A stretch of 42,145 bases of DNA from positions 1 to 42,145 of the forward strand of contig DATKHH010000003.1 in the NCBI GenBank assembly GCA_035510315.1. The letters are read 5' to 3'. Source of the stretch: Candidatus Saccharimonadia bacterium. GTDB taxonomy: Bacteria > Patescibacteriota > Saccharimonadia > Saccharimonadales > DATKHC01. Position numbers and translations under genes: made by a program. Below the pieces are notes generated by a model. The model did not search any database. It was not told the origin of the DNA and saw only the letters and a program-made list of their open reading frames with translations. Of this stretch, positions 1-34,264 are shown piece after piece (within the stretch, counting starts at the first letter, position 1; each line of letters begins with the position of its first letter).

Positions 1-3000
1 ACAGATACTTTAGTCGAAGTGCAAGACCAAAATCAGACACTTGTAGGTCTGGAGGGTTCTGAGTGCCCAACTCCCTCAGATGTAGCATTGGGACAATTAT
101 CTGTACAGGGTGAGATAGAGCCGACAATAACCCATGAAATAGCCCCAGAAGGTTGGCTTACAAACAATGCTCTTGGCAAGAAATTAGACATTGACCCGGA
201 AACGGTAAGAAAACGGGCAGTTGCATTACAGGAAGATCACCCAGATTGGTTTGGTGGTTTCCTAGACTCATCTGGCCACTCAAATGTGCACTATCACCCC
301 GATTTAATCGAGACACTGGCTAAGAGTGAGTTAGGATGTCAAAAAGCTCCCGAGGGGTGGCTTTCTCTAAAAGGCACAGGTGATTTAGTTGGATTTTCAG
401 ATGGAGTAGTAAGACAGGTTGTCGAAACATATAGAGAAAGTAATCCCGAATTATTTAGCACATTTAGAGGAAAAGGTGGTCATGTGACAGAGCACTTCCA
501 TCCTGATCTTATAGCTAAAGTTGCGCAGGTACTATCTGAGAGAAAACCTGCTCCTGAGGGTTGGACGACTGTAAACAGTGTAGCCAAAGCGCTGGGGGTT
601 GACTTTGGGTCTGTTAAAAAGGTAGTAGATAATTATCGGGAAGAACATCCTGAATGGTTTGGCGTATTTCTAAACCAAGCTAAGAGGATGTCTGAGCATC
701 TTTCTCCGGATTTAGAGTCAGCAATAAGCAGAGATCTATCGCAGTATCAAACGGCTTCAGATGGCTGGGATACCACCAATGGTGTTGCAAAACAACTTGG
801 GGTCTCTTTTATGACAGTACGAAGAGTAGCTGAAACTTACCGTGAAGAACATCCTGAATGGTTTGATATGCGTAAGGGCGCAGGTAGACAATTAGCTGAA
901 CACTTTAATCCGCAGCTAATTGGTATGATTCACGAAAATATAACTGGTAGAGAGCCGACTCCTGAGGGTTGGGTATCAAACCAGGATCTAGCGGAGCTTC
1001 TTGGATGTACAACAACTACAGCAGATAAAATTACAGATGAATTCCGCCAAGAACATCCTGAATGGTTTGGCGTATATAGACATAGTAGCGGAAGACTTGG
1101 CAATGACTATCACCCCGATTTAGTAGCGACAGTGACTCAAATGTTTTCAGATCGGGAACCCGTACCTGAGGGTTGGTCTACTGCTTCAGCAATTGCGACT
1201 CAGGTTAGTGGTGATCACCGCCGACTAAAGGCACTGGCTGAATCTTACCGCCAAGAACATCCTGAATGGTTTGGCGTATATCCAGAAGCACGTGTTAAGA
1301 GACTTACCGAACATTATCATCCAGAGTTGGTAAGAATCATTACTGAGGCCGAAATATCAAATCACTCTGAGGTAGCCGAAAGAAAACTAAGTCAGCTGGA
1401 GCAAAAAGAGTCGAGGGACGACTTAAAAGAATTTGTAAATAATATGTCGCAACCCGAGTCATTAGAAAGTCAGGAATTTCAATCATTGGTTGAACTTTTT
1501 GGGGGAGAGAGAGTTATAGATATTCTTTATCAGTACCACCCCGAGTATAAAAAGATATCTGTACCCTACGTAAAAAGCATTATTGCAGATTATCTAGGAG
1601 ACTTCCTCACGACACCAGGAGGGTTAGATTTAGAAAATCTCGAAGCGGGTGTAGAGTTCTTATTTGATTCTAGTTTGAAGGATGGTTTAACCGAGGTTGT
1701 AAAACAAGACTGTCTAAGATTTTATAATCAGCAGAGAAAAGACGGATTAACTACTGATGATCTCGATGCAATTCTCGAACATATTAGCGATTTACGCGGT
1801 CAAACAGCACACTTCTCAACAGAAGAACTCGGCGAAGTTTTTGAAGAAGTAGAAAGCTACTACAGATCATTATTTGAAGATATACATAAACCCGAATGTT
1901 TAGTTGATGAACTAAATCCGGGACGCTTATTCCCTGATCTAAACCAGCGAATCAACATTCACGAAATGGCGACAAAATACAAGATGCTAATTGCCGATGA
2001 AATGGGTGTCGGTAAAAGTGCCTCAGCTATTTTAACCAAAGAATATTTAGGAGTAGGCTTGGCTTTAATAGTTGCTCCAAGTAACGTAGTAGATACTTGG
2101 CAGAATTATTTGTCTGACAAAGTTATCGATAGTGAGCAAGTTGGTTACTTTAAACCAGGTCAAGCACCAAGAGTATTGATAGTCGAAAGCCTCGTGTCCC
2201 TAGAAGGAATAAATCCTACCGATTATGACTATATTGTTATGTCTCAAGAGCGACTTAATGATCGATATGTAGAAGCACTCCAAGAAGTTAATTACGGAAT
2301 GCTTGTAGTAGATGAAGTCCACAAAATGAAAAACTTAATATCAGGGAAAAGGGCTGAAAACTTAATTAAGTTAGCCGACGGTATCAAGGATACAGATGGA
2401 GCTAAATATCTAGCTCTATTATCTGGCACACCGATTCCTAATAAGGTCGGTGATATATCAATGGTCTTGAAGCTTTTATATCCCGAAAAGTTTGAAGGGA
2501 TCAGCAATAAAGAGTTAACTAATCAAATTCTATACGGTGATGCTCTGGATCTGCGTAGTCTGTTAGTACCAAGAATGCAAATGAAATCGCTGGCCGAAAG
2601 TATTAAGATGCCTAATCTTGAGGAAAGGATACATTTAGTTGAGTTGACGGCGGAAGAGCGTGAAATGTATGAGGTTCTACTAGAAGAGGATGAGATAGCT
2701 GCTTCACAGAAACTTCAGATCCTTAGGAAGTTTTCTCTAAGTCCATCCTTGCTTGATGCTACACCAGATATTAATGGTTCTAAGATACAGGAAGTTGGGG
2801 CAGCTCTTAGGGAAACTTTTACGAATAGAGATAAAGTTGTTATGTTCGTCAATGGGTATATTGAAGGTGTTATTCGAGGAGACAATACGATTGTCGAAGC
2901 GCTTGGTTTGCCTGAGGGCATAGAAGTCTTTGCCATCGAAGGCGAGGTTGAGAAAGATACACGTGTAGCTATACAACAGCAACTTCAGGGTAGTAACAGA

Positions 3001-7651: not shown

Positions 7652-8449
7652 TTGGAAGGATTAGATAAGATTAGAAGTAGCGTAGTGCAAGCTGAAGAAA
7701 GAGTGGATTTGGCTCAACAGGGAGCAAGCACAGAACGAGCTAATTTAGCCGATTTATTGAAGGAAAAACAAGCACTAATAGTCGCGGGAGAAGATTCAAC
7801 TGGAGATGAGCTTCAGGACGGTCTTATTGCAACTTATGGTAGTTTACTAGGATCAGCTGATACAACAATCATCGATAATTATAATAAAGTAGCAAGTGAA
7901 CTCGAAGGCAAAGAAGACCAACCAGTAGTTGTTATACATAACTGGGAAGAGTCGCTAGGTTGTACCGGTTTTGGAGACGAACCGCAATATCAAACTCAGT
8001 CTCTTACGATTCTTGGTATATTGAATGGTTCTAAGTTGGTGTTTGACTACAGTGAGAAATCCTGCTCCCTACCTACTGAAAAATATGCGTTGTCTACAAG
8101 GGGGTCATTTAGTGACGAATTTGAGATCGTTGATGGTAATGTAGTGGTTGCTAATGTAAATCAATACTTTAGAGGAAGAATGGGTTTTGATTTGGGTACA
8201 GATTTAGGTGTAATGTTTGAAGTTAGGGGAACATTTTCAAGGGTTTTAGAAAAGCATGTACCATCTTTGATTGTTGCCATAGGTCATCAAGGCGTTGAAA
8301 GTTTGTTATCAACAGAGGACACATTTACTAGGTATCAATTCCTTGAAATTAGATCTCTGTGTGAGGCTTTGGGTATAGAGAAAATTGATCCTGCTACCGA
8401 ATCACAGAGACTATACCTTGATAGCATGGAAGAAATAAGTGGCAGCTAA
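7652..8449 (+). CDS. Hypothetical protein, 265 aa: N-terminal charged, heptad-looking stretch followed by an uncharacterised globular domain
   Basis: TTG start with a strong SD 6 nt upstream. I recognise no motif. Confidence 0.65.
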   Translation: MEGLDKIRSSVVQAEERVDLAQQGASTERANLADLLKEKQALIVAGEDSTGDELQDGLIATYGSLLGSADTTIIDNYNKVASELEGKEDQPVVVIHNWEESLGCTGFGDEPQYQTQSLTILGILNGSKLVFDYSEKSCSLPTEKYALSTRGSFSDEFEIVDGNVVVANVNQYFRGRMGFDLGTDLGVMFEVRGTFSRVLEKHVPSLIVAIGHQGVESLLSTEDTFTRYQFLEIRSLCEALGIEKIDPATESQRLYLDSMEEISGS

Positions 8450-8486
8450 AATCTATAATTTACACTAGTAGATTGTAGGCTAAGAG

Positions 8487-8495
8487 TGCTATAAT
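8487..8495 (+). promoter_or_regulatory. Extended -10 promoter element TGcTATAAT for lemA-htpX
   Basis: tgctataat lies at 8487-8495. SD aggag at 8511-8515 and the ATG at 8522 follow. Confidence 0.5.
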
Positions 8496-8521
8496 TAGGT
8501 TATAAAACTTAGGAGAAAATA

Positions 8522-9103
8522 ATGGATTTATTGTATGTTTTGATCGCTGTGGTAGTTGTCGCTGGCGTCATTGCTATGGCTATGTATAACGGCCTAGTAA
8601 GACTAAATGTTCGCTCAGATGAAGCTTGGAGCGATATAACAGTTCAGCTAAAAAGACGATACGACCTTATACCAAATCTTGTAAAGACGGTTCAAGGTTA
8701 TGCAAGTCATGAAAAAACAGTTTTTGAGAAAGTAACCGAAACTAGAGCTAATGCACTGGGTGCTAAGACTGTAGAAGATACTGCTAAGGCTGAAAATCAG
8801 ATACAAACCGCACTTAAGAGTCTTTTTGCGGTATCTGAAAATTATCCAGATTTGAAGGCTAACCAAGGTTTCTTGGATCTACAAGGCCAACTAGAAGATA
8901 CTGAGGATAAAATTCAGGCTTCAAGAAGATTTTATAATGGTGTAGTTCGTGATTTTAATACCAAAAGAAAAGTATTTCCAACTAAGGTTTTTGCTAAGAT
9001 GTTAGGCTTTAAAGTTGATAAGCCATTTTTCGAACTTGATGAAGCTGAGACAAAAGAAGTTAGTGAACCCGTAGAAGTAAGCTTCCCTCAAACGGACAAG
9101 TAA
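8522..9103 (+). CDS. lemA: LemA family protein
   Basis: N-terminal TM segment followed by YNGLVRL...EAWSDI...LKRRYDLIPNLV...E..VFE.V...R and SENYPDLKAN...L, typical of LemA. Confidence 0.85.
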   Translation: MDLLYVLIAVVVVAGVIAMAMYNGLVRLNVRSDEAWSDITVQLKRRYDLIPNLVKTVQGYASHEKTVFEKVTETRANALGAKTVEDTAKAENQIQTALKSLFAVSENYPDLKANQGFLDLQGQLEDTEDKIQASRRFYNGVVRDFNTKRKVFPTKVFAKMLGFKVDKPFFELDEAETKEVSEPVEVSFPQTDK

Positions 9104-9128
9104 TCTTTTAAATAAAGTGAGTTTATAA

Positions 9129-10017
9129 GTGTATAGCCAAATAGCTTCTAATAAGAGAAAAACCTATTTCATGATGTTTCTATTTATTATTTTGATAGGT
9201 TTAATTGGTTACGTATTTGCTTATATTTACAAAAGTCCGGATCTACTAATAGTCATTGCCATCAGCGCAGTTGTTTATGCAATCATAAGTTATTACGTTG
9301 GCTCTCGCCTTTCTTTGGCTGTGAATAGTGCCAAAGAAATTAAAAAATCAGATAATCCCAGACTTTGGAGAATAATAGAAAATCTTAGTATTACTGATGG
9401 ACTTCCAATGCCAAGGGTATTTATTATAGATGATCCGTCTCCTAACGCTTTTGCGACTGGTAGAACACCAGATAAAGCAGCAGTTTGTGCTACATCTGGA
9501 CTACTTGAAATTATGGATGATAATGAGTTGCAAGGTGTATTTGCCCACGAAATGGGACACGTTAAAAACTATGACATTCGAGTGGCAATGATAGCCTTCG
9601 CGCTGACAGCAGTGATTAGTATTTTGGCTGATGTAATGATTAGACTGGCATTCTTTGGTGAACTTGGAGGTAGGAGGGGTAATGGTGGTAACAATGAAGG
9701 AAATCAAGTATTTTTAATTCTTGGTATTATTGCAGCAATACTCGCGCCAATTATTGCAACTATGATTTCACTGGCTGTTTCGAGGAAAAGAGAATACCTA
9801 GCAGACGCAACTGGTGCTATGACTACTCGCTATCCCGAAGGGCTGATTAGTGCACTCCAAAAGATAGAGAGAACAGGCTCAGTTTTAAAAAAACAAAATA
9901 CTGCAACAGCTCATTTTTTCTTTGCAAATCCACTTAAAGCCCACTCTATAACTAATCTATTTAGTACTCACCCACCAATCGATAAGAGGATACAAAGATT
10001 ACGGGATATGGGTAGTC

Positions 10018-10025
<8 letters not shown>
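9129..10025 (+). CDS. htpX: M48-family zinc metalloprotease HtpX
   Basis: HEMGHV zinc motif, four TM segments, PNAFATG, REYLAD and a C-terminal STHPPIDKRI. The GTG start preserves the HtpX-like N-terminus N.RKT. Confidence 0.9.
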
Positions 10026-12956
<2,931 letters not shown>

Positions 12957-13111: not shown

Positions 13112-13188
13112 TGGTGGAGTATAGGAGACTCGGACTCCTGACCTCTTGCCTGCCAGGCAAGCGCTCTAACCAGCTGAGCTAATACCCC
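13112..13188 (-). tRNA. tRNA-Ala (anticodon GGC), 77 nt, with CCA encoded
   Basis: Hand-folded cloverleaf: acceptor GGGGTAT/ATACTCC with the G3:U70 alanine identity pair, D arm GCTC-AGCTGGTTA-GAGC, anticodon arm CTTGC-CTGGCAG-GCAAG, T arm AGGAG-TCCGAGT-CTCCT, then ACCA. The T-loop has C rather than U at position 55. Confidence 0.9.
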
Positions 13189-14926: not shown

Positions 14927-16365
14927 TCCGCAGATTTTTTAGTATCTACTCGCCAAAGTTAAGCTCAAACATTATTTATATGTTGCAAAGATGTGAGTAC
15001 GAAGTAAAACCATACTTTGCTTGGTTAGTTAAAACAACAGATTATGGCAATATTACAAAAAGGGGCGACTTAGTTAAAACAAGTAAGGCTGTAGGTCTAC
15101 TTACTTTGCTTCGCTGTGGCATTAGCTTTCAATTAGCTATAGGAATTTATTTCTTATTTTATGCTATAGATTATAAAAGTTTTGGATACTTAGGTATTGG
15201 GCTAGCACTATTTTTAACGTATCCACTAATTTGGGCTGTTTTAATTACCTGGCCACTGCTTCTTGCCAGGTGGTTTATAGTTAGACCAAAAGAAGCTCTA
15301 TTAGTTTCAAGATCCAAACAAATCTTTGCAAGTTATAAGGGTAAGAAGATTGCTGTTGCTGGTAGCTATGGTAAAACTACTATGAAGGAATTACTAGCTA
15401 CGGTATTATCTGAAGCTGGACAAGTTGCTGCTACGCCAGGCAATAAAAATGTTGCTTCGTCACACGCTGTTTTTGCTCAAAAACTATCAGGTAAAGAAAA
15501 ATTTGTAATAGTTGAATTTGGAGAGGGTAAGTCTGGTGACATTAAAAAGTTTGCTTCTACTATAAAACCCGATGTTGGGGTTATAACTGGGATTGCACCG
15601 GCTCATCTTAATAAGTATGCAGATTTAAAAGCTGCTGCAACTGACATTTTCTGTCTCTCAGACTTTGTTGATCACTCTCAGTTATATGTTAATGGTGAAT
15701 CGGAAGATATCGGAAATTATATTGACCCAAAAGATCAAGTATATACGGCCGAAGGCATTTCTAATTGGCAGGTCAGTAGCGTTATTTCAAACTTTGATGG
15801 AATAGCCTTCAAACTTACCAATAAAAAAGACGACAAGCAGGTAATCAACATAAAGAGTTGCCTTCTTGGTCGTCATCAAATAGGCCCACTGTCGGCTGTT
15901 GCAGTTATTGCGTTTAATAATGGTTGTAGTATTAATCAAATTGAAAAAGGGTTTTTAAAGACTAAGCCATTCGAACATCGGATGGAGCTTAGACAAATTG
16001 GCTTAGCTCAGGTTATTGATGATACTTATAATGGTAATATTGAGGGTATTGCCGCCGGACTGAACTTACTAAGTGAATTACCAGCAAATCGAAAAATATA
16101 TGTTACTCCGGGATTAGTTGATCAAGGTATTGAGACGGAGCGGGTGCATATCAAGATGGGTAGTCTAATATCAGAAGCTAATCCAGATAAAGTGGTACTC
16201 ATGAAAAATTCGGTAACAGATTATATCATCAAGGGATTAGGGGATTATAAGGGCCAGATGGAGATAATAGACGATCCACTGCACTATTACCAAAATATAG
16301 ATAAAACTTTGGCAAAAGGTGATTTGCTATTGATGCAAAATGACTGGCCAGATAATTATAAATAG
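14923..16365 (+). CDS. Mur ligase family protein (MurF-like) with an N-terminal transmembrane region
   Basis: P-loop VAGSYGKTTMKE and the central and C-terminal Mur ligase layout (DDTYNGN). The first ~120 aa contain 2-3 hydrophobic helices instead of the usual soluble N-domain. ATGA overlap with the upstream gene; ddl follows directly. Confidence 0.75.
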   Translation: MIRRFFSIYSPKLSSNIIYMLQRCEYEVKPYFAWLVKTTDYGNITKRGDLVKTSKAVGLLTLLRCGISFQLAIGIYFLFYAIDYKSFGYLGIGLALFLTYPLIWAVLITWPLLLARWFIVRPKEALLVSRSKQIFASYKGKKIAVAGSYGKTTMKELLATVLSEAGQVAATPGNKNVASSHAVFAQKLSGKEKFVIVEFGEGKSGDIKKFASTIKPDVGVITGIAPAHLNKYADLKAAATDIFCLSDFVDHSQLYVNGESEDIGNYIDPKDQVYTAEGISNWQVSSVISNFDGIAFKLTNKKDDKQVINIKSCLLGRHQIGPLSAVAVIAFNNGCSINQIEKGFLKTKPFEHRMELRQIGLAQVIDDTYNGNIEGIAAGLNLLSELPANRKIYVTPGLVDQGIETERVHIKMGSLISEANPDKVVLMKNSVTDYIIKGLGDYKGQMEIIDDPLHYYQNIDKTLAKGDLLLMQNDWPDNYK

Positions 16366-17564: not shown

Positions 17565-20450
17565 ATGAAAAGATATAATCCCAAAGAGATTGAACCAAAG
17601 TGGCAATCACAGTGGCAAAGTGATGGAATATATAAGGCTTTAGATAACTCTAAAAAGCCGAAGAAATATGTTCTAGAGTTTTTCCCATACCCTAGCGGTA
17701 ATGCAATGCATGTCGGCCATGTCCGTAATTATACAATTGGAGATACACTAGCCAGATTTAACAGAATGAATGGTTATAACGTTCTCCACCCAATGGGCTG
17801 GGACGGTTTTGGTTTACCTGCAGAGAACTATGCAATTAAAACGGGTATAAGCCCTAGAGTGGCAATTGATCGTAATACTAAACGCTTCAAACAACAGCTT
17901 ATGGCTATGGGATTTGGCTATGATTGGTCCAGAGAGGTTGATTCGACAGATCCAAAATATTATAAATGGACACAGTGGTTTTTCCTTTATTTGTTTAAAA
18001 AAGGCCTAGCATATAGACAAGAAAGTTTGCAGTGGTGGTGCCCAAAGGATAAGACAGTATTAGCTAACGAACAGGTTGAAGCCGGTAGGTGTTGGCGATG
18101 CGGCCACGTAGTAGAGAAAAAAGCACTCAAACAATGGTTTTTTAAAATTACTGATTATGCTGATGATTTAGAAAAAGATCTGGAAGATCTTGATTGGAGT
18201 GAGTCGATAAAGACCGTGCAGAGAAACTGGATAGGTAAAAGTATTGGTTGTGAAGCAGACTTTAAAATTAAAGGTCAAGCAAAAGTAATAAAGGTGTTTA
18301 CGACCAGAATTGATACCATATATGGTGCAACTTTTTTAGTTTTAGCACCAGAACATTACCTACTTAAGGAAATAGTTACAAAAGATCAAAAGGCTGAAGT
18401 CGATAGATATATTGACCTGGCTATGTCTAAAAGTGACATACAAAGACAAGACAGTGATAAGAAAAAAACAGGTGTGTTTAGTGGTGCGTATGCCATAAAT
18501 CCTATTCATGATCAGCCGATTCCAATTTGGATTGCTGATTATGTTCTAGGCACTTATGGCTCTGGTGCAATAATGGCCGTACCTGGCCATGACCAAAGAG
18601 ACATGGATTTTGCAACTGAATTTAGCCTTCCTATTATCGAGGTCATTGAACCTGTTTTTGGTGAACCGCAAGGGGATGAAGTACATAAAGATAAAATCAT
18701 AGCTGTTTTAAGAGATCCTAGAAACAACAAAGTAATTGTGCTCGATTGGGGTTTAAGACAGAAACGCCATGGTGGCAATATGCTAATTGGGGGTAGCGTT
18801 GAAAAAGGTGAAGATACAGTAGCAGCTGCAGAGAGGGAAATACGAGAAGAAACGGGCTATTCAGATATAAAGTTTGTTCGTAAACTAACGTCAAGGGGGC
18901 ATGGCTACTTCTATTCAAATGTAAAAAATCAAAATTATTGCGGACATTGTAGTGGACTATTATTTGAACTGGGTAGCGATAAAAAGGTCTCAACAAATCT
19001 CGATGAGGGTGAAAAAAATAAATTTAATCTTAAGTGGATGGATGAAGATAGTGTAGACCAAATACTCGATGATGGTATACATCAGGCATTTTATAAACGT
19101 CTTGTCCTAAATGAATGTTACACGGGCGAAGGTATAATGATTCATTCAGGAGACTATGATGGGATTTCATCATCTGAGATGAGAGACAGGGTTTTGTCTG
19201 ATCTTGTTAAACAGAAAAAAGCTAAAGAGAAAGTAAATTACAAGATCAGAGATTGGTTAATTAGTAGACAAAGGTATTGGGGAGCACCTATCCCGATTAT
19301 ATATTGCACGGATGATGGTATTGTTGCTGTGCCAGAAGATGAGCTACCAGTACTACTTCCAGAGATTGAGAAATATGAACCTAGCGTCGATGGTAGAAGT
19401 CCGCTGGCTAATGTAGATTCGTTTGTTAATACCATTTGCCCAAAATGTGGTAAACCTGCCAAAAGAGAAACTGACACTATGGACGGCTTTGCATGTAGTA
19501 GCTGGTATTTTTTGAGATTTGCTGATCCACATAACGACAAGCAGCCATTTTCAAAAGACAAGGTTGATTATTGGTTACCAGTTGATGAATATATTGGTGG
19601 AGCAGAGCATGCAGTCATGCATCTTTTGTACGCTAGATTTTGGACTAAGGTTATGCATAGCGGAGGACTAATTAATTTTAGCGAACCGTTTAAAACGCTT
19701 AAAAATCATGGCATGATTTTAGCTCCTGATGGAGCTAAAATGAGCAAAAGCAAGAACAATACTATTGAACCAGAAACTTTATTGGAACAAGGCTATGGTG
19801 CTGACACTATTAGGATTATGGAGCTATTTATAGGGCCATGGGATCAAAGTGCTAACTGGAGTGTTGAGGGAATGGCCGGAGCTAATAGATTTTTACAGCG
19901 AATCTGGACTATATGTAGTGAATTCTTAGAGTCTAAAACCAAACCAAAAAACGACGAAACTTCAGAAACACTAAAGAGGGTGATTAATCAAACAATTGAT
20001 AAGACTTCTAAAGATATACATAACCTAAGTTTTAACACTGCTATTGCGGCACAGATGGAATGTTTAAATCAGCTTTACAAGCTAAAAGAAGTGGATAATT
20101 TTTCTAATCGTGAAAGTTGGAGTTTTGCGCTAAAAACACTCCTTCAGTTGCTTGCTCCGTTTGCACCACATATCAGTGAAGAACTTTGGAGTAAGTTCGA
20201 TCAAAATGAATCAATACACTTATCTTCATGGCCAGCAGCAGACGAAATTTATCTAAAGAAAGATAAACAGACTATAGTTATTCAAGTAAATGGTAAATTG
20301 CGTAGTGAAATAGAAATAAGTTTCGATTTAAGTGAGGCTGAAATTACAGATTTGGCTTTAAAACAATCAAAAGTAAACAACGCTATAAAAGGTAAAAACA
20401 TTAAGAAAACCATACATGTAAAAGATAGGTTAGTTAACTTCGTAACTTAA
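17565..20450 (+). CDS. leuS: Leucine--tRNA ligase carrying an inserted Nudix domain
   Basis: HIGH-type motif (NAMHVGH), KMSKS, CP1 editing signatures (TTRIDTIYGATF, MAVPGHDQRDMDFA) and RDWLISRQRYWGAPIP. At 961 aa it is about 100 aa longer than the 860 aa I recall for E. coli LeuRS. Confidence 0.95.
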   Translation: MKRYNPKEIEPKWQSQWQSDGIYKALDNSKKPKKYVLEFFPYPSGNAMHVGHVRNYTIGDTLARFNRMNGYNVLHPMGWDGFGLPAENYAIKTGISPRVAIDRNTKRFKQQLMAMGFGYDWSREVDSTDPKYYKWTQWFFLYLFKKGLAYRQESLQWWCPKDKTVLANEQVEAGRCWRCGHVVEKKALKQWFFKITDYADDLEKDLEDLDWSESIKTVQRNWIGKSIGCEADFKIKGQAKVIKVFTTRIDTIYGATFLVLAPEHYLLKEIVTKDQKAEVDRYIDLAMSKSDIQRQDSDKKKTGVFSGAYAINPIHDQPIPIWIADYVLGTYGSGAIMAVPGHDQRDMDFATEFSLPIIEVIEPVFGEPQGDEVHKDKIIAVLRDPRNNKVIVLDWGLRQKRHGGNMLIGGSVEKGEDTVAAAEREIREETGYSDIKFVRKLTSRGHGYFYSNVKNQNYCGHCSGLLFELGSDKKVSTNLDEGEKNKFNLKWMDEDSVDQILDDGIHQAFYKRLVLNECYTGEGIMIHSGDYDGISSSEMRDRVLSDLVKQKKAKEKVNYKIRDWLISRQRYWGAPIPIIYCTDDGIVAVPEDELPVLLPEIEKYEPSVDGRSPLANVDSFVNTICPKCGKPAKRETDTMDGFACSSWYFLRFADPHNDKQPFSKDKVDYWLPVDEYIGGAEHAVMHLLYARFWTKVMHSGGLINFSEPFKTLKNHGMILAPDGAKMSKSKNNTIEPETLLEQGYGADTIRIMELFIGPWDQSANWSVEGMAGANRFLQRIWTICSEFLESKTKPKNDETSETLKRVINQTIDKTSKDIHNLSFNTAIAAQMECLNQLYKLKEVDNFSNRESWSFALKTLLQLLAPFAPHISEELWSKFDQNESIHLSSWPAADEIYLKKDKQTIVIQVNGKLRSEIEISFDLSEAEITDLALKQSKVNNAIKGKNIKKTIHVKDRLVNFVT
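18660..19125 (+). other. Nudix hydrolase domain (about 150 aa) inserted in the LeuRS linker after CP1
   Basis: Complete Nudix box GSVEKGEDTVAAAEREIREETGY (G-x5-E-x7-R-E-U-x-E-E-x-G-U), aa 410-432, nt 18792-18860. It is flanked by the LeuRS segments ...PIIEVIEPVFGEP and GEGIMIHSGDYDG. Confidence 0.8.
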
Positions 20451-31527: not shown

Positions 31528-31601
31528 TGCACTACTAAGTTTAACAAACTAACCTACATACTATCCAGATAGGATTATTTTTTGTCTAGGTATAGTAGTT
31601 A

Positions 31602-32120
31602 CTAGTTTGAGGAGGGTGTGGATGAAGATGATTGGCTTGGTCCAGAGAAGTTAACAACGGTTAGGCTTGTAGCATTATTTGTATTTGATGGGTCTAGAGC
31701 TATTATAACGGTTTGACCTACGCTAATAGATGACAGGGATATGGATTGTTGGTTTTCGGTAATTGTAGTGCTACTAGTGATATTTATTGTACTCGAAGTG
31801 TTTGTACGGGTGTTACTAACGGTGATACTTGAAGAGCCAATTGCAGTAACGTCTCCAAACAATCTATTAGCACCAAATCTGCCTCCGCCATTGCTGCCAA
31901 AAGGTGATCGATTATTACCATTAATTGTAGTCGATGTTGTTGCTAGGGTTTTGTTGTGATGATTCTGATAGACTGTACCTAAGTAAAATAAAAGGACGGA
32001 ATATATAACTAGTCCTACAGCAAGCAATATTATCTTATTGTAGCTACCATTGTTTTTCCCTTTCTGATAGTTTAGTGACTTAAAGTCTTCTCCAGATATG
32101 AAATCATCCTTTTCGGCCAT
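31602..32120 (-). CDS. Membrane-anchored S/T/N-rich protein, 172 aa, possible accessory subunit of the ABC transporter
   Basis: One TM segment (IILLAVGLVIYSVLLFYLG). The following beta-strand-like segment VTAIGSSSITVSN...ITSSTTITENQQSISLSSISVGQTVIIAL resembles DUF5666-type domains; this is from memory and unverified. A 1-nt gap separates it from the ATPase gene. Confidence 0.6.
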   Translation of the reverse strand: MAEKDDFISGEDFKSLNYQKGKNNGSYNKIILLAVGLVIYSVLLFYLGTVYQNHHNKTLATTSTTINGNNRSPFGSNGGGRFGANRLFGDVTAIGSSSITVSNTRTNTSSTINITSSTTITENQQSISLSSISVGQTVIIALDPSNTNNATSLTVVNFSGPSQSSSSTPSSN

Positions 32121-32121
32121 A

Positions 32122-32790
32122 TTATTTCTCCAATTTACCGTCTTTTAGTTTAAATGTTTTATCAGTTTTACCAGCTATATCTAAATCATGAGTTACGGTT
32201 ATAATTGTAGTCTTTTCGCTTTTGGCGAGGTCGTGCAGTAGATCGAAAATCATTTTTCCAGTTTGTGAATCAAGGTTGCCAGTTGGCTCATCAGCTAATA
32301 TAAGACTTGGCTTGTTAGCTAACGCACGTGCAATGGCTACGCGTTGTTGTTGTCCGCCACTTAACTTACCCGGTTTACGAGTGTGTTCGTTTTCGCTTAG
32401 ACCTACTTGATCAAGTAGCTGTTTTGCACGCGTGAGGCGTTCTTTTTTAGGCGTTTTGGCATACTCCATTGGCAACATAACATTTTCTAAGGCTGTTAGG
32501 TTTGGGACAAGATTATAGCTTTGAAACACAAAGCCTATTTTTCGACCACGGTATTTAATCAATGCATGGTCGCTAAGTTTGGTTATGTCTGTGTCTCCTA
32601 TTTCAATAGATCCGGCACTTGGTTTATCTAAAGCACCCAGGAGGCTAAGTAGCGTACTCTTACCGCTTCCGCTGCGACCAACGATTGATGCAAATTGGCC
32701 TTCTGGTACGTTCAGAGATATGTCATTTACGGCTCTAACTTTTACGTCTCCGGACTTAAAGTCCTTGGTTAGGTTTGTTACTTTCAACAT
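32122..32790 (-). CDS. ABC transporter ATP-binding protein (MacB/LolD type)
   Basis: Walker [10 protein letters not shown], signature LSGGQQQR, Walker B LILADEPT and an H-loop (VTHD). Confidence 0.95.
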
Positions 32791-34184
32791 TATTCTATCC
32801 TCATAACTTCCGCCGGTCTTATTTTTGCGATTATAAATGAAGCTACAGCACTACCAACTATTGCTATAACTAAAGCCGCTAGAATTCCATATATGATTAT
32901 ATTCCATCCAACTGCTGTGTGTATTGAACTAAAATCACTTCTAATTCCCCCAAAAACTCTATGTGGCGTAGAACCACTAAATCCTCCTCCACCTCTACCA
33001 CCAGAGCTAAATGAGCTACTATTTGAAGTAGAACTACTGTTGTTTACTAGTAGTTTAGTAATTGGGTTTCCGGCGACAAAGCCAATAAGTATACCAATAA
33101 TTGATGCTAGTAGAGTTAGAGTTACCGCTTCGGTCATAAATTGTATCATTATGTTTATGTTTGATGCGCCAATAGCTTTAACGACTCCTATTTCACGGCG
33201 ACGCTCACGAACAATCATAACCATAGTCAGTAGAATTATAATGCCCCCAGCTACTACTGCACCGATGAGAGAGTAAAGTGACACGGTTTTTACGCTATTT
33301 AGTGGTGCAACTGTATTGTTAGCTTGTGTCACTGAACTGGTGACATCGGCAGTAGATGAGCCGAGTGTCTTTTTTATAGCTGAAGTTACTGAAGCTAAAT
33401 TACTAAGTGAGTCAACAGTGGCAACTGCGCTAGTAATATCTCCACTTTGTCCACTTAAACGTTGCTCGGTTGGTAGGGATACTACAACTGTTCCGGCAGC
33501 AGATTCATTACTACTGACAGTAAAGATTCCGGTTACGGTCATGGTTGTGCTATATGCGGTGAACGTAGAGCCAACCTTTAAGTTATTTTTATTAGCCATA
33601 CTTTTACTTACCATAGCGTTGTTAGCATTGCTCATACCATTTAAAACTTGGCCGCTAATTAAGGTAAGTGGTGTGCCACCTAAACTAGTTGTGTCATTGG
33701 TACCAGTGATTGATATCGGAGGAGTAAAGTTAGTTGGTAAGCTCCCACCACCAGATATGAAGAAATGGCCACCACCAGGCCCACCACCACCAGTATTTAT
33801 ATTGACGGGGGAAGTTAAGCTTGTCTGTGAGCTAGTTGAGGTTGATTGACTTGAGAAAAAAGACTGTGTCGATGAGCCAATGGTCGTTAGTCTATCGGTT
33901 AAGCTTTCTTGAACATTAGTTACGTGAGGTAACGTACTAACCTTAGAGAGTTCGCTTGTAGTTAGTGAGTTATTGACTGAGCTAAAACCACTGAAACCAG
34001 CTGGGGAGATACTGACTGTATTACCAATCGAACTTTCCACTGACTTTATTTTGTCACCAACAGCTTGGTGTGCTACTAACATGGATAGTGACAAACCTAT
34101 AATGAGACCAAGTATGACTACTATTGAAAAAGTTCTAATTACATTTCTGAACGCATTCCTGATTCCTCTACTAACAGTATTCAT
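32790..34184 (-). CDS. ABC transporter permease, FtsX/MacB type, with a large S/T/G-rich extracytoplasmic domain
   Basis: N-terminal TM segment, an ectodomain of about 280 aa and a C-terminal FtsX module (RRREIGVVKAIGAS...). I prefer the ATG at 34184 with the aaagga RBS; the ORF track extends to 34217. Confidence 0.85.
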   Translation of the reverse strand: MNTVSRGIRNAFRNVIRTFSIVVILGLIIGLSLSMLVAHQAVGDKIKSVESSIGNTVSISPAGFSGFSSVNNSLTTSELSKVSTLPHVTNVQESLTDRLTTIGSSTQSFFSSQSTSTSSQTSLTSPVNINTGGGGPGGGHFFISGGGSLPTNFTPPISITGTNDTTSLGGTPLTLISGQVLNGMSNANNAMVSKSMANKNNLKVGSTFTAYSTTMTVTGIFTVSSNESAAGTVVVSLPTEQRLSGQSGDITSAVATVDSLSNLASVTSAIKKTLGSSTADVTSSVTQANNTVAPLNSVKTVSLYSLIGAVVAGGIIILLTMVMIVRERRREIGVVKAIGASNINIMIQFMTEAVTLTLLASIIGILIGFVAGNPITKLLVNNSSSTSNSSSFSSGGRGGGGFSGSTPHRVFGGIRSDFSSIHTAVGWNIIIYGILAALVIAIVGSAVASFIIAKIRPAEVMRIE

Positions 34185-34264
34185 TGAGATTCCTTTATAA
34201 TAAATTAATAGATTCATTATTCAACTTATTGCTGAAGCGTGGCTGAATATAACTACATTAAGGT

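Follow-up and report, generated by a model that had tools for sequence, protein, structure and literature searches.

Genes upstream of lemA

The DNA considered here is the left end of contig DATKHH010000003.1 from Candidatus Saccharimonadia bacterium (assembly GCA_035510315.1), analysed over a stretch of 42,145 nucleotides that we refer to as the window. Between its first nucleotide and the lemA gene, the window contains a giant gene whose product joins an array of helix-turn-helix (HTH)-like repeats, an SNF2-family ATPase and a methyltransferase in a single polypeptide; a small gene, orf174, whose product is predicted to adopt the fold of the alkylpurine DNA glycosylase AAG; a cassette of four genes centred on a single-HKD nuclease of the phospholipase D (PLD) superfamily; and three further genes, named here memb186, orf207 and orf265 (Table 1). 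It is rather probable, in our judgement, that this stretch is a variable accessory region made up of two independent recurrent modules, the giant gene with its AAG-like partner (module A) and the nuclease cassette (module B), together with three lineage-specific genes of unknown function.

A preliminary description of this DNA, made from the letters alone, had taken eight of these genes for one island-borne defence system. All eight open reading frames (ORFs) are recovered at the same positions by the ORF search, and most of the individual protein assignments are borne out as well: the fusion of an SNF2 helicase to a class I methyltransferase agrees with the Pfam domains, the XRE regulator with its HTH_3 match, the single-HKD PLD nuclease with its PLDc_2 match and intact motif, the acidic character of the 69-aa protein with its isoelectric point (pI), and the membrane protein with its strong hydrophobicity. 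The grouping of the genes into one system is what the results below do not sustain.

Table 1. Coordinates of the features at the left end of the window
Feature	Position	Strand	Remarks
Giant multidomain protein (~1450 aa), module A	1..4359	+	ORF open to the left end of the window; few N-terminal residues missing at most
Six tandem 68-aa HTH-like repeats (giant protein)	139..1362	+	Regular 68-aa (204-nt) spacing; presumed DNA-binding array
SNF2-family ATPase core (giant protein)	1918..3300	+	Motifs I (DEMGVGKS), II (DEVH) and VI (Q..GR..R) intact
Helical bundle, predicted Rrp8/nucleomethylin-like class I S-adenosylmethionine (SAM) methyltransferase and C-terminal alpha/beta domain (giant protein)	3286..4356	+	Pfam, PDB profile search, Foldseek
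Divergent AAG/MPG-fold protein (predicted), 174 aa (orf174), module A	4374..4898	-	Conserved core is the C-terminal ~125 aa
Hydrophobic membrane-like protein, 186 aa (memb186)	5040..5600	+	Grand average of hydropathy (GRAVY) 1.21; several hydrophobic stretches of transmembrane length; outside both modules
Protein of unknown function, 207 aa (orf207)	5655..6278	-	Divergent from the XRE gene; outside both modules
XRE-family HTH regulator, 70 aa, module B	6340..6552	+	HTH_3, 6e-13; convergent with the acidic gene, overlaps its end
Small acidic protein, 69 aa, module B	6549..6758	-	pI 4.5; directly downstream of the nuclease gene; candidate inhibitor or partner
Single-HKD PLD-superfamily (Nuc-like) nuclease (predicted), 160 aa, module B	6766..7248	-	PLDc_2, 9e-12, 45.4 bits against a cut-off of 27
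Small ORF, 45-52 aa, module B	7241..7399	-	Overlaps the nuclease start codon; kept in L171 and L176-L183
Acidic protein of unknown function, 265 aa (orf265)	7652..8449	+	TTG start; between module B and lemA
Start of the conserved core, lemA-htpX-(307 aa)-ligA	8522..12956	+	LemA 1e-58, Peptidase_M48 1e-34, NAD-dependent DNA ligase 2e-84; right border of the variable stretch

Module A: the giant protein and its family

The reading frame of the giant gene is open at the left end of the window. Its first PEGW motif stands at residue 49, compared with residue 53 in the complete homologue P0002, so the gene is essentially complete at its 5' end; the NCBI entry 'SNF2-related protein, partial' is 100% identical to its product. 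About 50 full-length homologues of 1400-1840 aa, with identities of 34-72%, make up the family, and all of them come from Patescibacteria/Saccharimonadia metagenomes.

The N-terminal repeats follow the consensus aPEGW.T...lA..LG......k.ae.YReeHPEWF.......g...EHYHPeL and are too diverged to be detected at the DNA level by Tandem Repeats Finder. Searched against PDB and Pfam profiles, the 68-aa repeat gave no match, with HTH_29 and HTH_23 appearing below threshold only, and a profile match that would have made it a TPR was judged spurious. The same repeat is found as a Patescibacteria-wide module (P0052-P0095), its arrays being either fused to restriction-type helicases (ResIII/PF18766) or accompanied by no other recognisable domain. 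The giant protein also has a conserved helical linker, to which no function is assigned.

The motor part of the protein is matched by SNF2-rel_dom (residues 659-904, 5e-19, 68.9 bits) and Helicase_C (residues 939-1046, 2.5e-10, 41 bits), both above the Pfam cut-offs, and its GxGKS, DExH and Q..GR..R motifs are invariant across 28 homologues. The methyltransferase core occupies approximately positions 3562-3996 and the conserved C-terminal alpha/beta domain, of about 110 aa, approximately 4018-4356. Three routes lead to the prediction that the methyltransferase is Rrp8-like: Pfam, where Methyltransf_8 scores 31.4 bits against a cut-off of 27 and Methyltransf_11 is also matched; a PDB profile search, whose best match is 2zfu (3e-7); and a Foldseek search with the AlphaFold2 (AF2) model of the domain, in which 2zfu again comes first (7e-10), about 1000-fold better than the next, generic class I methyltransferases. 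The model itself has a mean predicted local distance difference test (pLDDT) score of 90.6. Rrp8/nucleomethylin is in this way the best match of the domain in both sequence and structure, and the SAM-binding LDxASGPE and acidic motif II are invariant among 28 homologues. Rrp8 is a eukaryotic nucleolar rRNA m1A methyltransferase, whereas the domain of the giant protein is fused to a bacterial SNF2 motor and to repeats of a DNA-binding type. As the preliminary description had remarked, the motif of the DNA amino-methyltransferases is missing: no (D/N/S)PP(Y/F/W/H) occurs in the giant protein.

Similarity to proteins of known defence systems and mobile elements is confined to common domains. The PADLOC and NCBIfam defence models ZorD, DpdE, DrmD, BrxH and HmaA match only the generic SNF2 core, far under their family cut-offs, and a tblastn search of phages and plasmids with the giant protein returned the generic SNF2 half only, at about 24% identity. 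No match to the methyltransferase region, to the AAG-like protein or to the PLD protein turned up in IMG/VR, and a fold search of BFVD was equally empty.

Module A: an AAG-like partner

All-against-all clustering of 15 distinct giant-gene loci leaves the AAG-like gene as the sole recurrent neighbour, found beside the giant gene in nine of the 15 (eight, plus a distant version in L005). In L002, L087, L167, L169, L171, L174 and L184 the homologue is convergent with the giant gene and comes right after it; in L005 the distant version is located directly upstream. The percentage identities of the giant and AAG-like proteins track each other from locus to locus (giant/AAG-like: 72/75, 69/76, 65/72, 53/57, 51/52 and 49/56). 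A metagenome scan with the alignment of the giant family was swamped by generic SNF2 motifs and yielded true members in 4 of 80 loci, so that the co-occurrence statistics rest on the 15 loci.

The preliminary description had regarded orf174 as an orphan. It belongs in fact to a family of at least 23 clusters, which an exhaustive profile search brings to 108 representative clusters. The family carries no Pfam domain, orf174 itself stays under the threshold of Pfam Pur_DNA_glyco, and the match to NCBIfam PRK00802 (3-methyladenine glycosylase) is weak (E 1e-3). Its AF2 model (pLDDT 85), used as a Foldseek query, gives nine top PDB matches that are all human AAG (3e-4 to 6e-3, Foldseek probability 1.0, TM-score ~0.5), and the family profile retrieves proteins that do pass the Pur_DNA_glyco threshold, namely P0293 (3.6e-11, 43 bits) and P0290 (29 bits). 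The AAG-like profile retrieved nothing from the PDB sequences; the link to AAG needed both the structure search and the exhaustive profile search. The predicted fold and these profile matches together assign the orf174 family to the superfamily of the alkylpurine DNA glycosylases, in which it forms a divergent branch.

Compared with AAG/MPG, orf174 shares the fold in its model, while its core is shortened to about 125 aa and the positions of the catalytic Glu and Tyr appear to be replaced. In the alignment of the catalytic motif, the Pfam-positive P0293 reads LEVEGY and the other distant members, of 195-204 aa, show E or D at the first of these columns and Y or F at the second. The orf174 clade has instead ITAVLPQ, ILEVTPQ or IVKVKPQ, with T, L, K or N at the place of the Glu (human E125) and Q or R at that of the Tyr. 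What the clade seems to keep is a Tyr-x-Gly that we mapped by eye to the segment of AAG bearing the intercalating Tyr.

One locus carries both kinds of protein. In L184, a canonical Pur_DNA_glyco gene (15714-16307) lies 3 kb from the giant gene and from its short AAG-like partner, and is missed by the hidden Markov model of the orf174 family, so that the two represent distinct paralogous lines. This coexistence implies that the partner is not the housekeeping glycosylase.

Two further observations were made around the giant gene. An HSP20 gene is present 0.6-1.6 kb upstream of it in L002 (7898-8377) and L184 (6924-7409), in opposite orientations, the giant proteins of these loci being 72% and 49% identical to that of the window; it may be a remnant of shared positional ancestry. 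In L167 (15842-17893), an XRE gene whose product is 46% identical to that of the window stands by a serine recombinase, about 5 kb downstream of the giant homologue, and the two may belong to an integrative element.

Module B: the HKD-nuclease cassette

Module B spans positions 6340-7399 and consists of the small ORF, the nuclease gene, the acidic-protein gene and the convergent XRE gene. The four genes recur in the same relative order in L171/L172 and in L176-L183. In L171/L172, the identities to the window are 43% for the PLD protein, 29% for the acidic protein (64 aa), 48% for the XRE regulator and 50% for the small ORF; in L176-L183, the PLD protein is 75% and the small ORF 41% identical, with values in L176 of 40% for the XRE regulator and 31% for the acidic protein (76 aa). 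The acidic homologues were recognised by position and weak sequence similarity. In L176-L183, the cassette has pgk/tpiA/uvrD on one side and a beta-helix gene on the other, and the giant gene is not in the vicinity. The small ORF was missed by the preliminary description, and the NCBI locus tags 00110 (PLD) and 00115 (orf265) suggest that it is unannotated there too.

The HKD motif of the PLD protein, HRKIVIIDRQILYEGSLN at residue 109, is an intact HxKx4Dx6GSxN. Its homologues fall into more than 1147 clusters at 90% identity, the best 120 listed being 59-75% identical, and no signal peptide-like hydrophobic N-terminus was seen. Its size and single domain speak for a nuclease rather than a lipid activity. 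With about 160 aa and an intact HKD motif, it resembles pKM101 Nuc, the catalytic domain of BfiI and the PLD domains of MkoB and MkoC, the last of these being its best PADLOC match (4e-15). The XRE regulator is matched by PADLOC HTH_VI (8e-11), by restriction-modification controller (C) protein models (2e-8) and by capH (5e-8). The cassette differs from Nuc, BfiI, Mokosh and restriction-modification systems in having no helicase, methylase or recognition domain and in the two conserved small proteins that flank the nuclease; as for Mokosh in particular, the RNA helicase (MkoA, or the corresponding part of MkoC) is absent from the cassette in all loci.

A plausible mode of action would be that the XRE protein represses the cassette and that the Nuc-like HKD nuclease is held in check by its small partners, the acidic protein acting as partner or inhibitor, in which case module B would behave like a toxin-antitoxin or minimal restriction module. 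This abundant four-gene cassette represents a second candidate beside module A, and one that is cheap to test.

Probably two modules rather than one system

The eight left-hand genes form a mosaic, not a single system. Module B is found without the giant gene in L176-L183, and the giant gene without the cassette in L002, L003, L005, L167-L169, L184 and L186, where the flanks extend over 8-10 kb; most giant-gene loci lack the cassette. Downstream of the giant gene, its nearest relatives (L002 and L087, 72% and 69% identity) share with the window nothing but the AAG-like gene, and the genes beyond that one differ. The two modules are found side by side in two lineages only, the window and L171/L172, and the giant gene has the cassette at a different end in each: in L171 the cassette abuts its 5' end, and in the window it lies on the other side.

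The preliminary description had proposed that all eight genes constitute one new, DISARM-like multi-gene system in which the SNF2 helicase, the methyltransferase and the PLD nuclease cooperate. The adjacency of the SNF2-methyltransferase pair and the PLD cassette in two lineages would fit this proposal, as would the similarity of the PLD protein to PADLOC MkoC, MkoB and DrmC and of the SNF2 domain to ZorD, DpdE and DrmD. These matches are nevertheless to generic domains and far under the family cut-offs, and the distribution of the genes points the other way: besides the separate occurrences listed above, the PLD family is more than 20 times as abundant as the giant family (over 1147 clusters against about 50), the PLD protein of the window is closer to those of cassettes without a giant gene (75%) than to that of L171 (43%), and none of the loci fetched contains a counterpart of memb186, orf207 or orf265. 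With no DUF1998, DrmA or DrmB in any flank either, we hold a single cooperating system to be very unlikely.

The resemblance to DISARM deserves a closer look, as an SNF2-type helicase, a methyltransferase and a small PLD nuclease do share one neighbourhood. The stretch is not DISARM. The absence of the DrmA/DrmB pair, already noticed in the preliminary description, holds for the window, where no DUF1998 was found, and for the Pfam listings of the 6-10 kb flanks of 10 homologous loci, and a weak DrmA match (E 0.004) corresponds to a generic helicase C-lobe. The helicase and the methyltransferase of the window are fused, the latter is of the Rrp8-like class I type and not an N6-adenine DNA methylase, and the PLD protein belongs to a separate cassette usually located elsewhere. 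The scores are low as well: the NCBIfam DrmD models give the giant protein 43 and 30 bits against cut-offs of 950 and 610, and PADLOC DrmC matches the PLD protein with E 2e-5 and 22 bits, a generic PLD-domain similarity exceeded by that to MkoC. The analogy is in consequence one of generic SNF2 and PLD domains.

A related possibility is that the window shows only part of a canonical system (DISARM, BREX, Zorya, Dpd or Mokosh) completed just beyond its left end, where the neighbours of the giant gene are out of view; the weak PADLOC matches to ZorD, DpdE, DrmD, BrxH and HmaA would go in this direction. Those matches do not reach beyond the generic SNF2 or PLD domain, the methyltransferase is neither an N6-adenine nor a C5 DNA methylase, and in homologous loci the 6-10 kb upstream of the giant gene hold unrelated housekeeping genes instead of DUF1998, PglX/PglZ, ZorA/B, Dpd or RNA-helicase partners. 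We consider this possibility extremely improbable. A PADLOC run on the region, which the preliminary description had advised, matched no system. Its view that the combination is undescribed survives in part, for no DISARM or other PADLOC system is matched and one gene pair appears to be new, but not as a statement about one unified system.

Two independent modules remain the reading that we prefer, and a point that weighs against it is that modules A and B lie less than 2 kb apart in two lineages, in differing arrangements, which is more than chance predicts for unrelated genes. A functional link between them may exist. Mobile or conflict genes are present beside several giant-gene loci (a serine recombinase in L167, a ParB-methylase in L169, an IS transposase in L171 and BrnT/BrnA in L186), and together with the adjacency of the modules in two lineages they give a pattern typical of accessory or defence-type neighbourhoods. 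The adjacency fits clustering in such a variable neighbourhood rather than a single machine.

Genomic context and composition

A LemA scan covering a single genome for each GTDB species returned 80 loci, and about 35 of them, of Saccharimonadia type, share the arrangement lemA-htpX-(307 aa)-ligA. Within 10 kb upstream of lemA, these approximately 35 loci hold none of the eight genes, except for a lone PLD gene in L017, whose product is 53% identical to that of the window and which is accompanied neither by the giant gene nor by the acidic partner. In the closest relatives (L007 and L014), the genes upstream of lemA are uvrC, pepP, and those for a small membrane protein, a substrate-binding protein, an FAD oxidase and a D-Ala-D-Ala carboxypeptidase (dacC). 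The conserved block thus begins at lemA, and the sequence to its left is variable. The comparison of the block upstream of lemA across relatives, suggested in the preliminary description, found it absent there in all those examined, in keeping with the view expressed there that the stretch is accessory rather than housekeeping. It has to be set against this that the relatives compared are distant (LemA at most 75% identical) and that strain-level presence or absence of the block as a unit is beyond their reach; for this reason, what the comparison shows is that synteny breaks off here, and no insertion can be dated from it.

Positions 1-8500 contain neither an integrase nor a tRNA gene, the search for flanking direct or inverted repeats gave short chance matches only, and the left border is outside the window; profile and repeat searches agree here with the preliminary description, which had seen no integrase or flanking direct repeat. 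The sole tRNA gene is located at 13112-13188. Terminator and promoter scans of the stretch were uninformative.

The composition of the left end was described beforehand as visibly GC-richer, and the computed values confirm a higher GC content: 0.44 at positions 1-1500 and about 0.40 up to 4.5 kb, compared with about 0.36 elsewhere in the window. The foreignness that this might indicate does not extend to synonymous sites. The excess is confined to codon positions 1 and 2 (in the repeat region, 0.59 at position 1, 0.41 at position 2 and 0.31 at position 3) and therefore reflects amino-acid composition, the repeats being rich in Glu, Gly, Pro, Trp and His. At the third codon position (GC3), the pooled island value of 0.297 compares with 0.279 in the core (core standard deviation 0.030), and the eight island genes taken singly range from 0.21 to 0.35, with core genes at 0.21-0.34. 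A leave-one-out synonymous-codon score places every island gene at z values of -0.9 to +1.9, inside the distribution of the core. As GC3 and codon usage match the core, composition gives no evidence of recent foreign origin.

A second GC bump, of 0.40-0.41, is seen at 31600-34200 over an FtsX-type permease gene and its neighbours; it is likewise driven by codon positions 1 and 2 (position 2 up to 0.50) and not by GC3.

Proposed function of module A

The maintenance in tiny genomes of an intact 4.4-kb gene, with every catalytic motif conserved and a dedicated partner, indicates that this gene must matter to the cell. In the literature, no description was found of an SNF2-Rrp8-like methyltransferase with an AAG-like partner, a preprint on methyltransferases of the candidate phyla radiation mentioning SNF2-linked domains in general terms, and the pair appears to be undescribed. 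The activities and targets considered in this section, and any anti-phage role, are inferred from the domain identities, gene pairings and distribution shown above.

The giant protein shares with DNMT5 and the Type ISP enzymes the presence, in one polypeptide, of an SF2/SNF2 motor, a SAM methyltransferase and a target-binding region. Fungal DNMT5 is an SNF2 ATPase fused to a C5 methylase, and LlaGI and LlaBIII are Type ISP restriction-modification enzymes. By analogy, methylation by the giant protein may depend on, or be coupled to, ATP-driven tracking along DNA. Contrary to those enzymes, its methyltransferase is Rrp8-like by prediction, without DPPY or C5 motifs; the protein lacks a nuclease domain; the presumed target binder of the family consists of 68-aa HTH-like repeats, six to nine in an array; and a dedicated partner, with a predicted AAG fold, is encoded alongside.

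From these parts, a mechanism can be sketched. The repeat array would hold the giant protein on DNA, where the SNF2 motor would translocate on, open or remodel the duplex; the Rrp8-like domain would methylate a base at a position outside the usual N6-A, N4-C and C5 types; and the AAG-fold partner would flip and bind the methylated or alkylated base, reading or shielding it without canonical excision. Such a mechanism could serve immunity, an addiction-type function or gene regulation. A bolder proposal, speculative and rather improbable, is that module A is an unrecognised nucleic-acid modification system, so far known from Patescibacteria only, which places on DNA a non-canonical methyl mark, such as N1- or N3-adenine or N7-guanine, that the AAG-fold protein reads, shields or processes. 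A motor-coupled Rrp8-like methyltransferase with an AAG-fold 'reader' would be a new combination of known parts and, if the methyltransferase acts on DNA, would point to a base modification uncatalogued in bacteria. The proposal, if true, would mean immunity against phages or against host DNA, or an epigenetic mark, in ultra-small epibiotic bacteria with very few known defences. A precedent for a glycosylase-like protein in a possible conflict context is the glycosylase-based defence Brig1 (Hossain et al. 2024, cited in PMC12366544); Brig1 belongs to the uracil DNA glycosylase superfamily, unrelated to the AAG fold of orf174. According to the same article, very few defence systems have been identified in Patescibacteria, whose genomes are tiny (PMC12366544).

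Several points weigh against the account of module A given here. The partner is not an obligatory one, as no AAG-like neighbour was detected at six of the 15 giant-gene loci; these six have mostly more divergent giant genes, and some of them short flanks. Where both genes are present, they are usually convergent and not co-transcribed. The loss of the catalytic Glu rests on a low-identity sequence alignment, not on a structural superposition. Finally, Rrp8 itself methylates rRNA, and the target of the methyltransferase of module A could be DNA, RNA or protein.

An alternative is that module A is no conflict system but a lineage-specific factor of genome maintenance or regulation: a nucleoid or transcription remodeller with a methyltransferase acting on RNA, protein or DNA, and a vertically inherited sensor of alkylation damage. 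This would agree with the repair function of the AAG family and with the action of Rrp8 on rRNA; codon usage cannot be told apart from that of the core; IMG/VR, phages and plasmids hold no relatives past generic SNF2 similarity; sequence conservation is strong across 1400 aa; and many loci sit amid housekeeping genes, for instance a ribosomal protein/rpoA block in L167 and ftsZ/ftsA in L003. Such a factor would, on the other hand, hardly be expected to be as patchy as the family is: its clusters number about 50, compared with thousands of Saccharimonadia lineages, and its genomic position differs in nearly every locus. Some of the loci adjoin the mobile or conflict genes mentioned above (L167, L169, L171 and L186), and in other proteins the repeat array is joined to restriction-type helicases. 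We regard a maintenance or regulatory role as possible, though doubtful.

Lineage-specific genes and other observations

The three genes outside the modules have no detectable relatives in the collections searched. At 90% identity, memb186, orf207 and orf265 are singleton clusters; none of them has a match in Pfam, PADLOC, NCBIfam or PHROG, orf207 and orf265 have none in PDB either, and no counterpart was seen in any fetched locus, the other cassette loci included. As for the HEPN-like motif that had been attributed to orf207, the two Rx4-6H matches of the protein are at chance level, at least one being present in 48% of shuffles of the same sequence.

A 184-aa membrane protein is encoded next to the PLD gene of L017, which raised the idea of memb186 and PLD as an ancestral local pair. 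Its similarity to memb186 is only marginal (22% identity, pairwise E 0.011), and such a pair is no more than a possibility.

The variable region upstream of lemA in L017 also contains, at 1479-2166, a 123-aa ORF followed by an 88-aa ORF that is 36% identical to the XRE regulator of the window; by eye, the pair resembles a HigB/RelE-type toxin with an HTH antitoxin. In L048 (2356-6732) and L049 (2307-6734), an ORF of about 1460 aa similar to isoleucyl-tRNA synthetase lies upstream of lemA and seems, again by eye, to carry long inserted segments. Another aminoacyl-tRNA synthetase with an additional domain is encoded in the window itself: the leucyl-tRNA synthetase at 17565-20450 (961 aa) has a NUDIX hydrolase domain inserted at residues 378-506, after the editing domain (Pfam, 2.4e-12).

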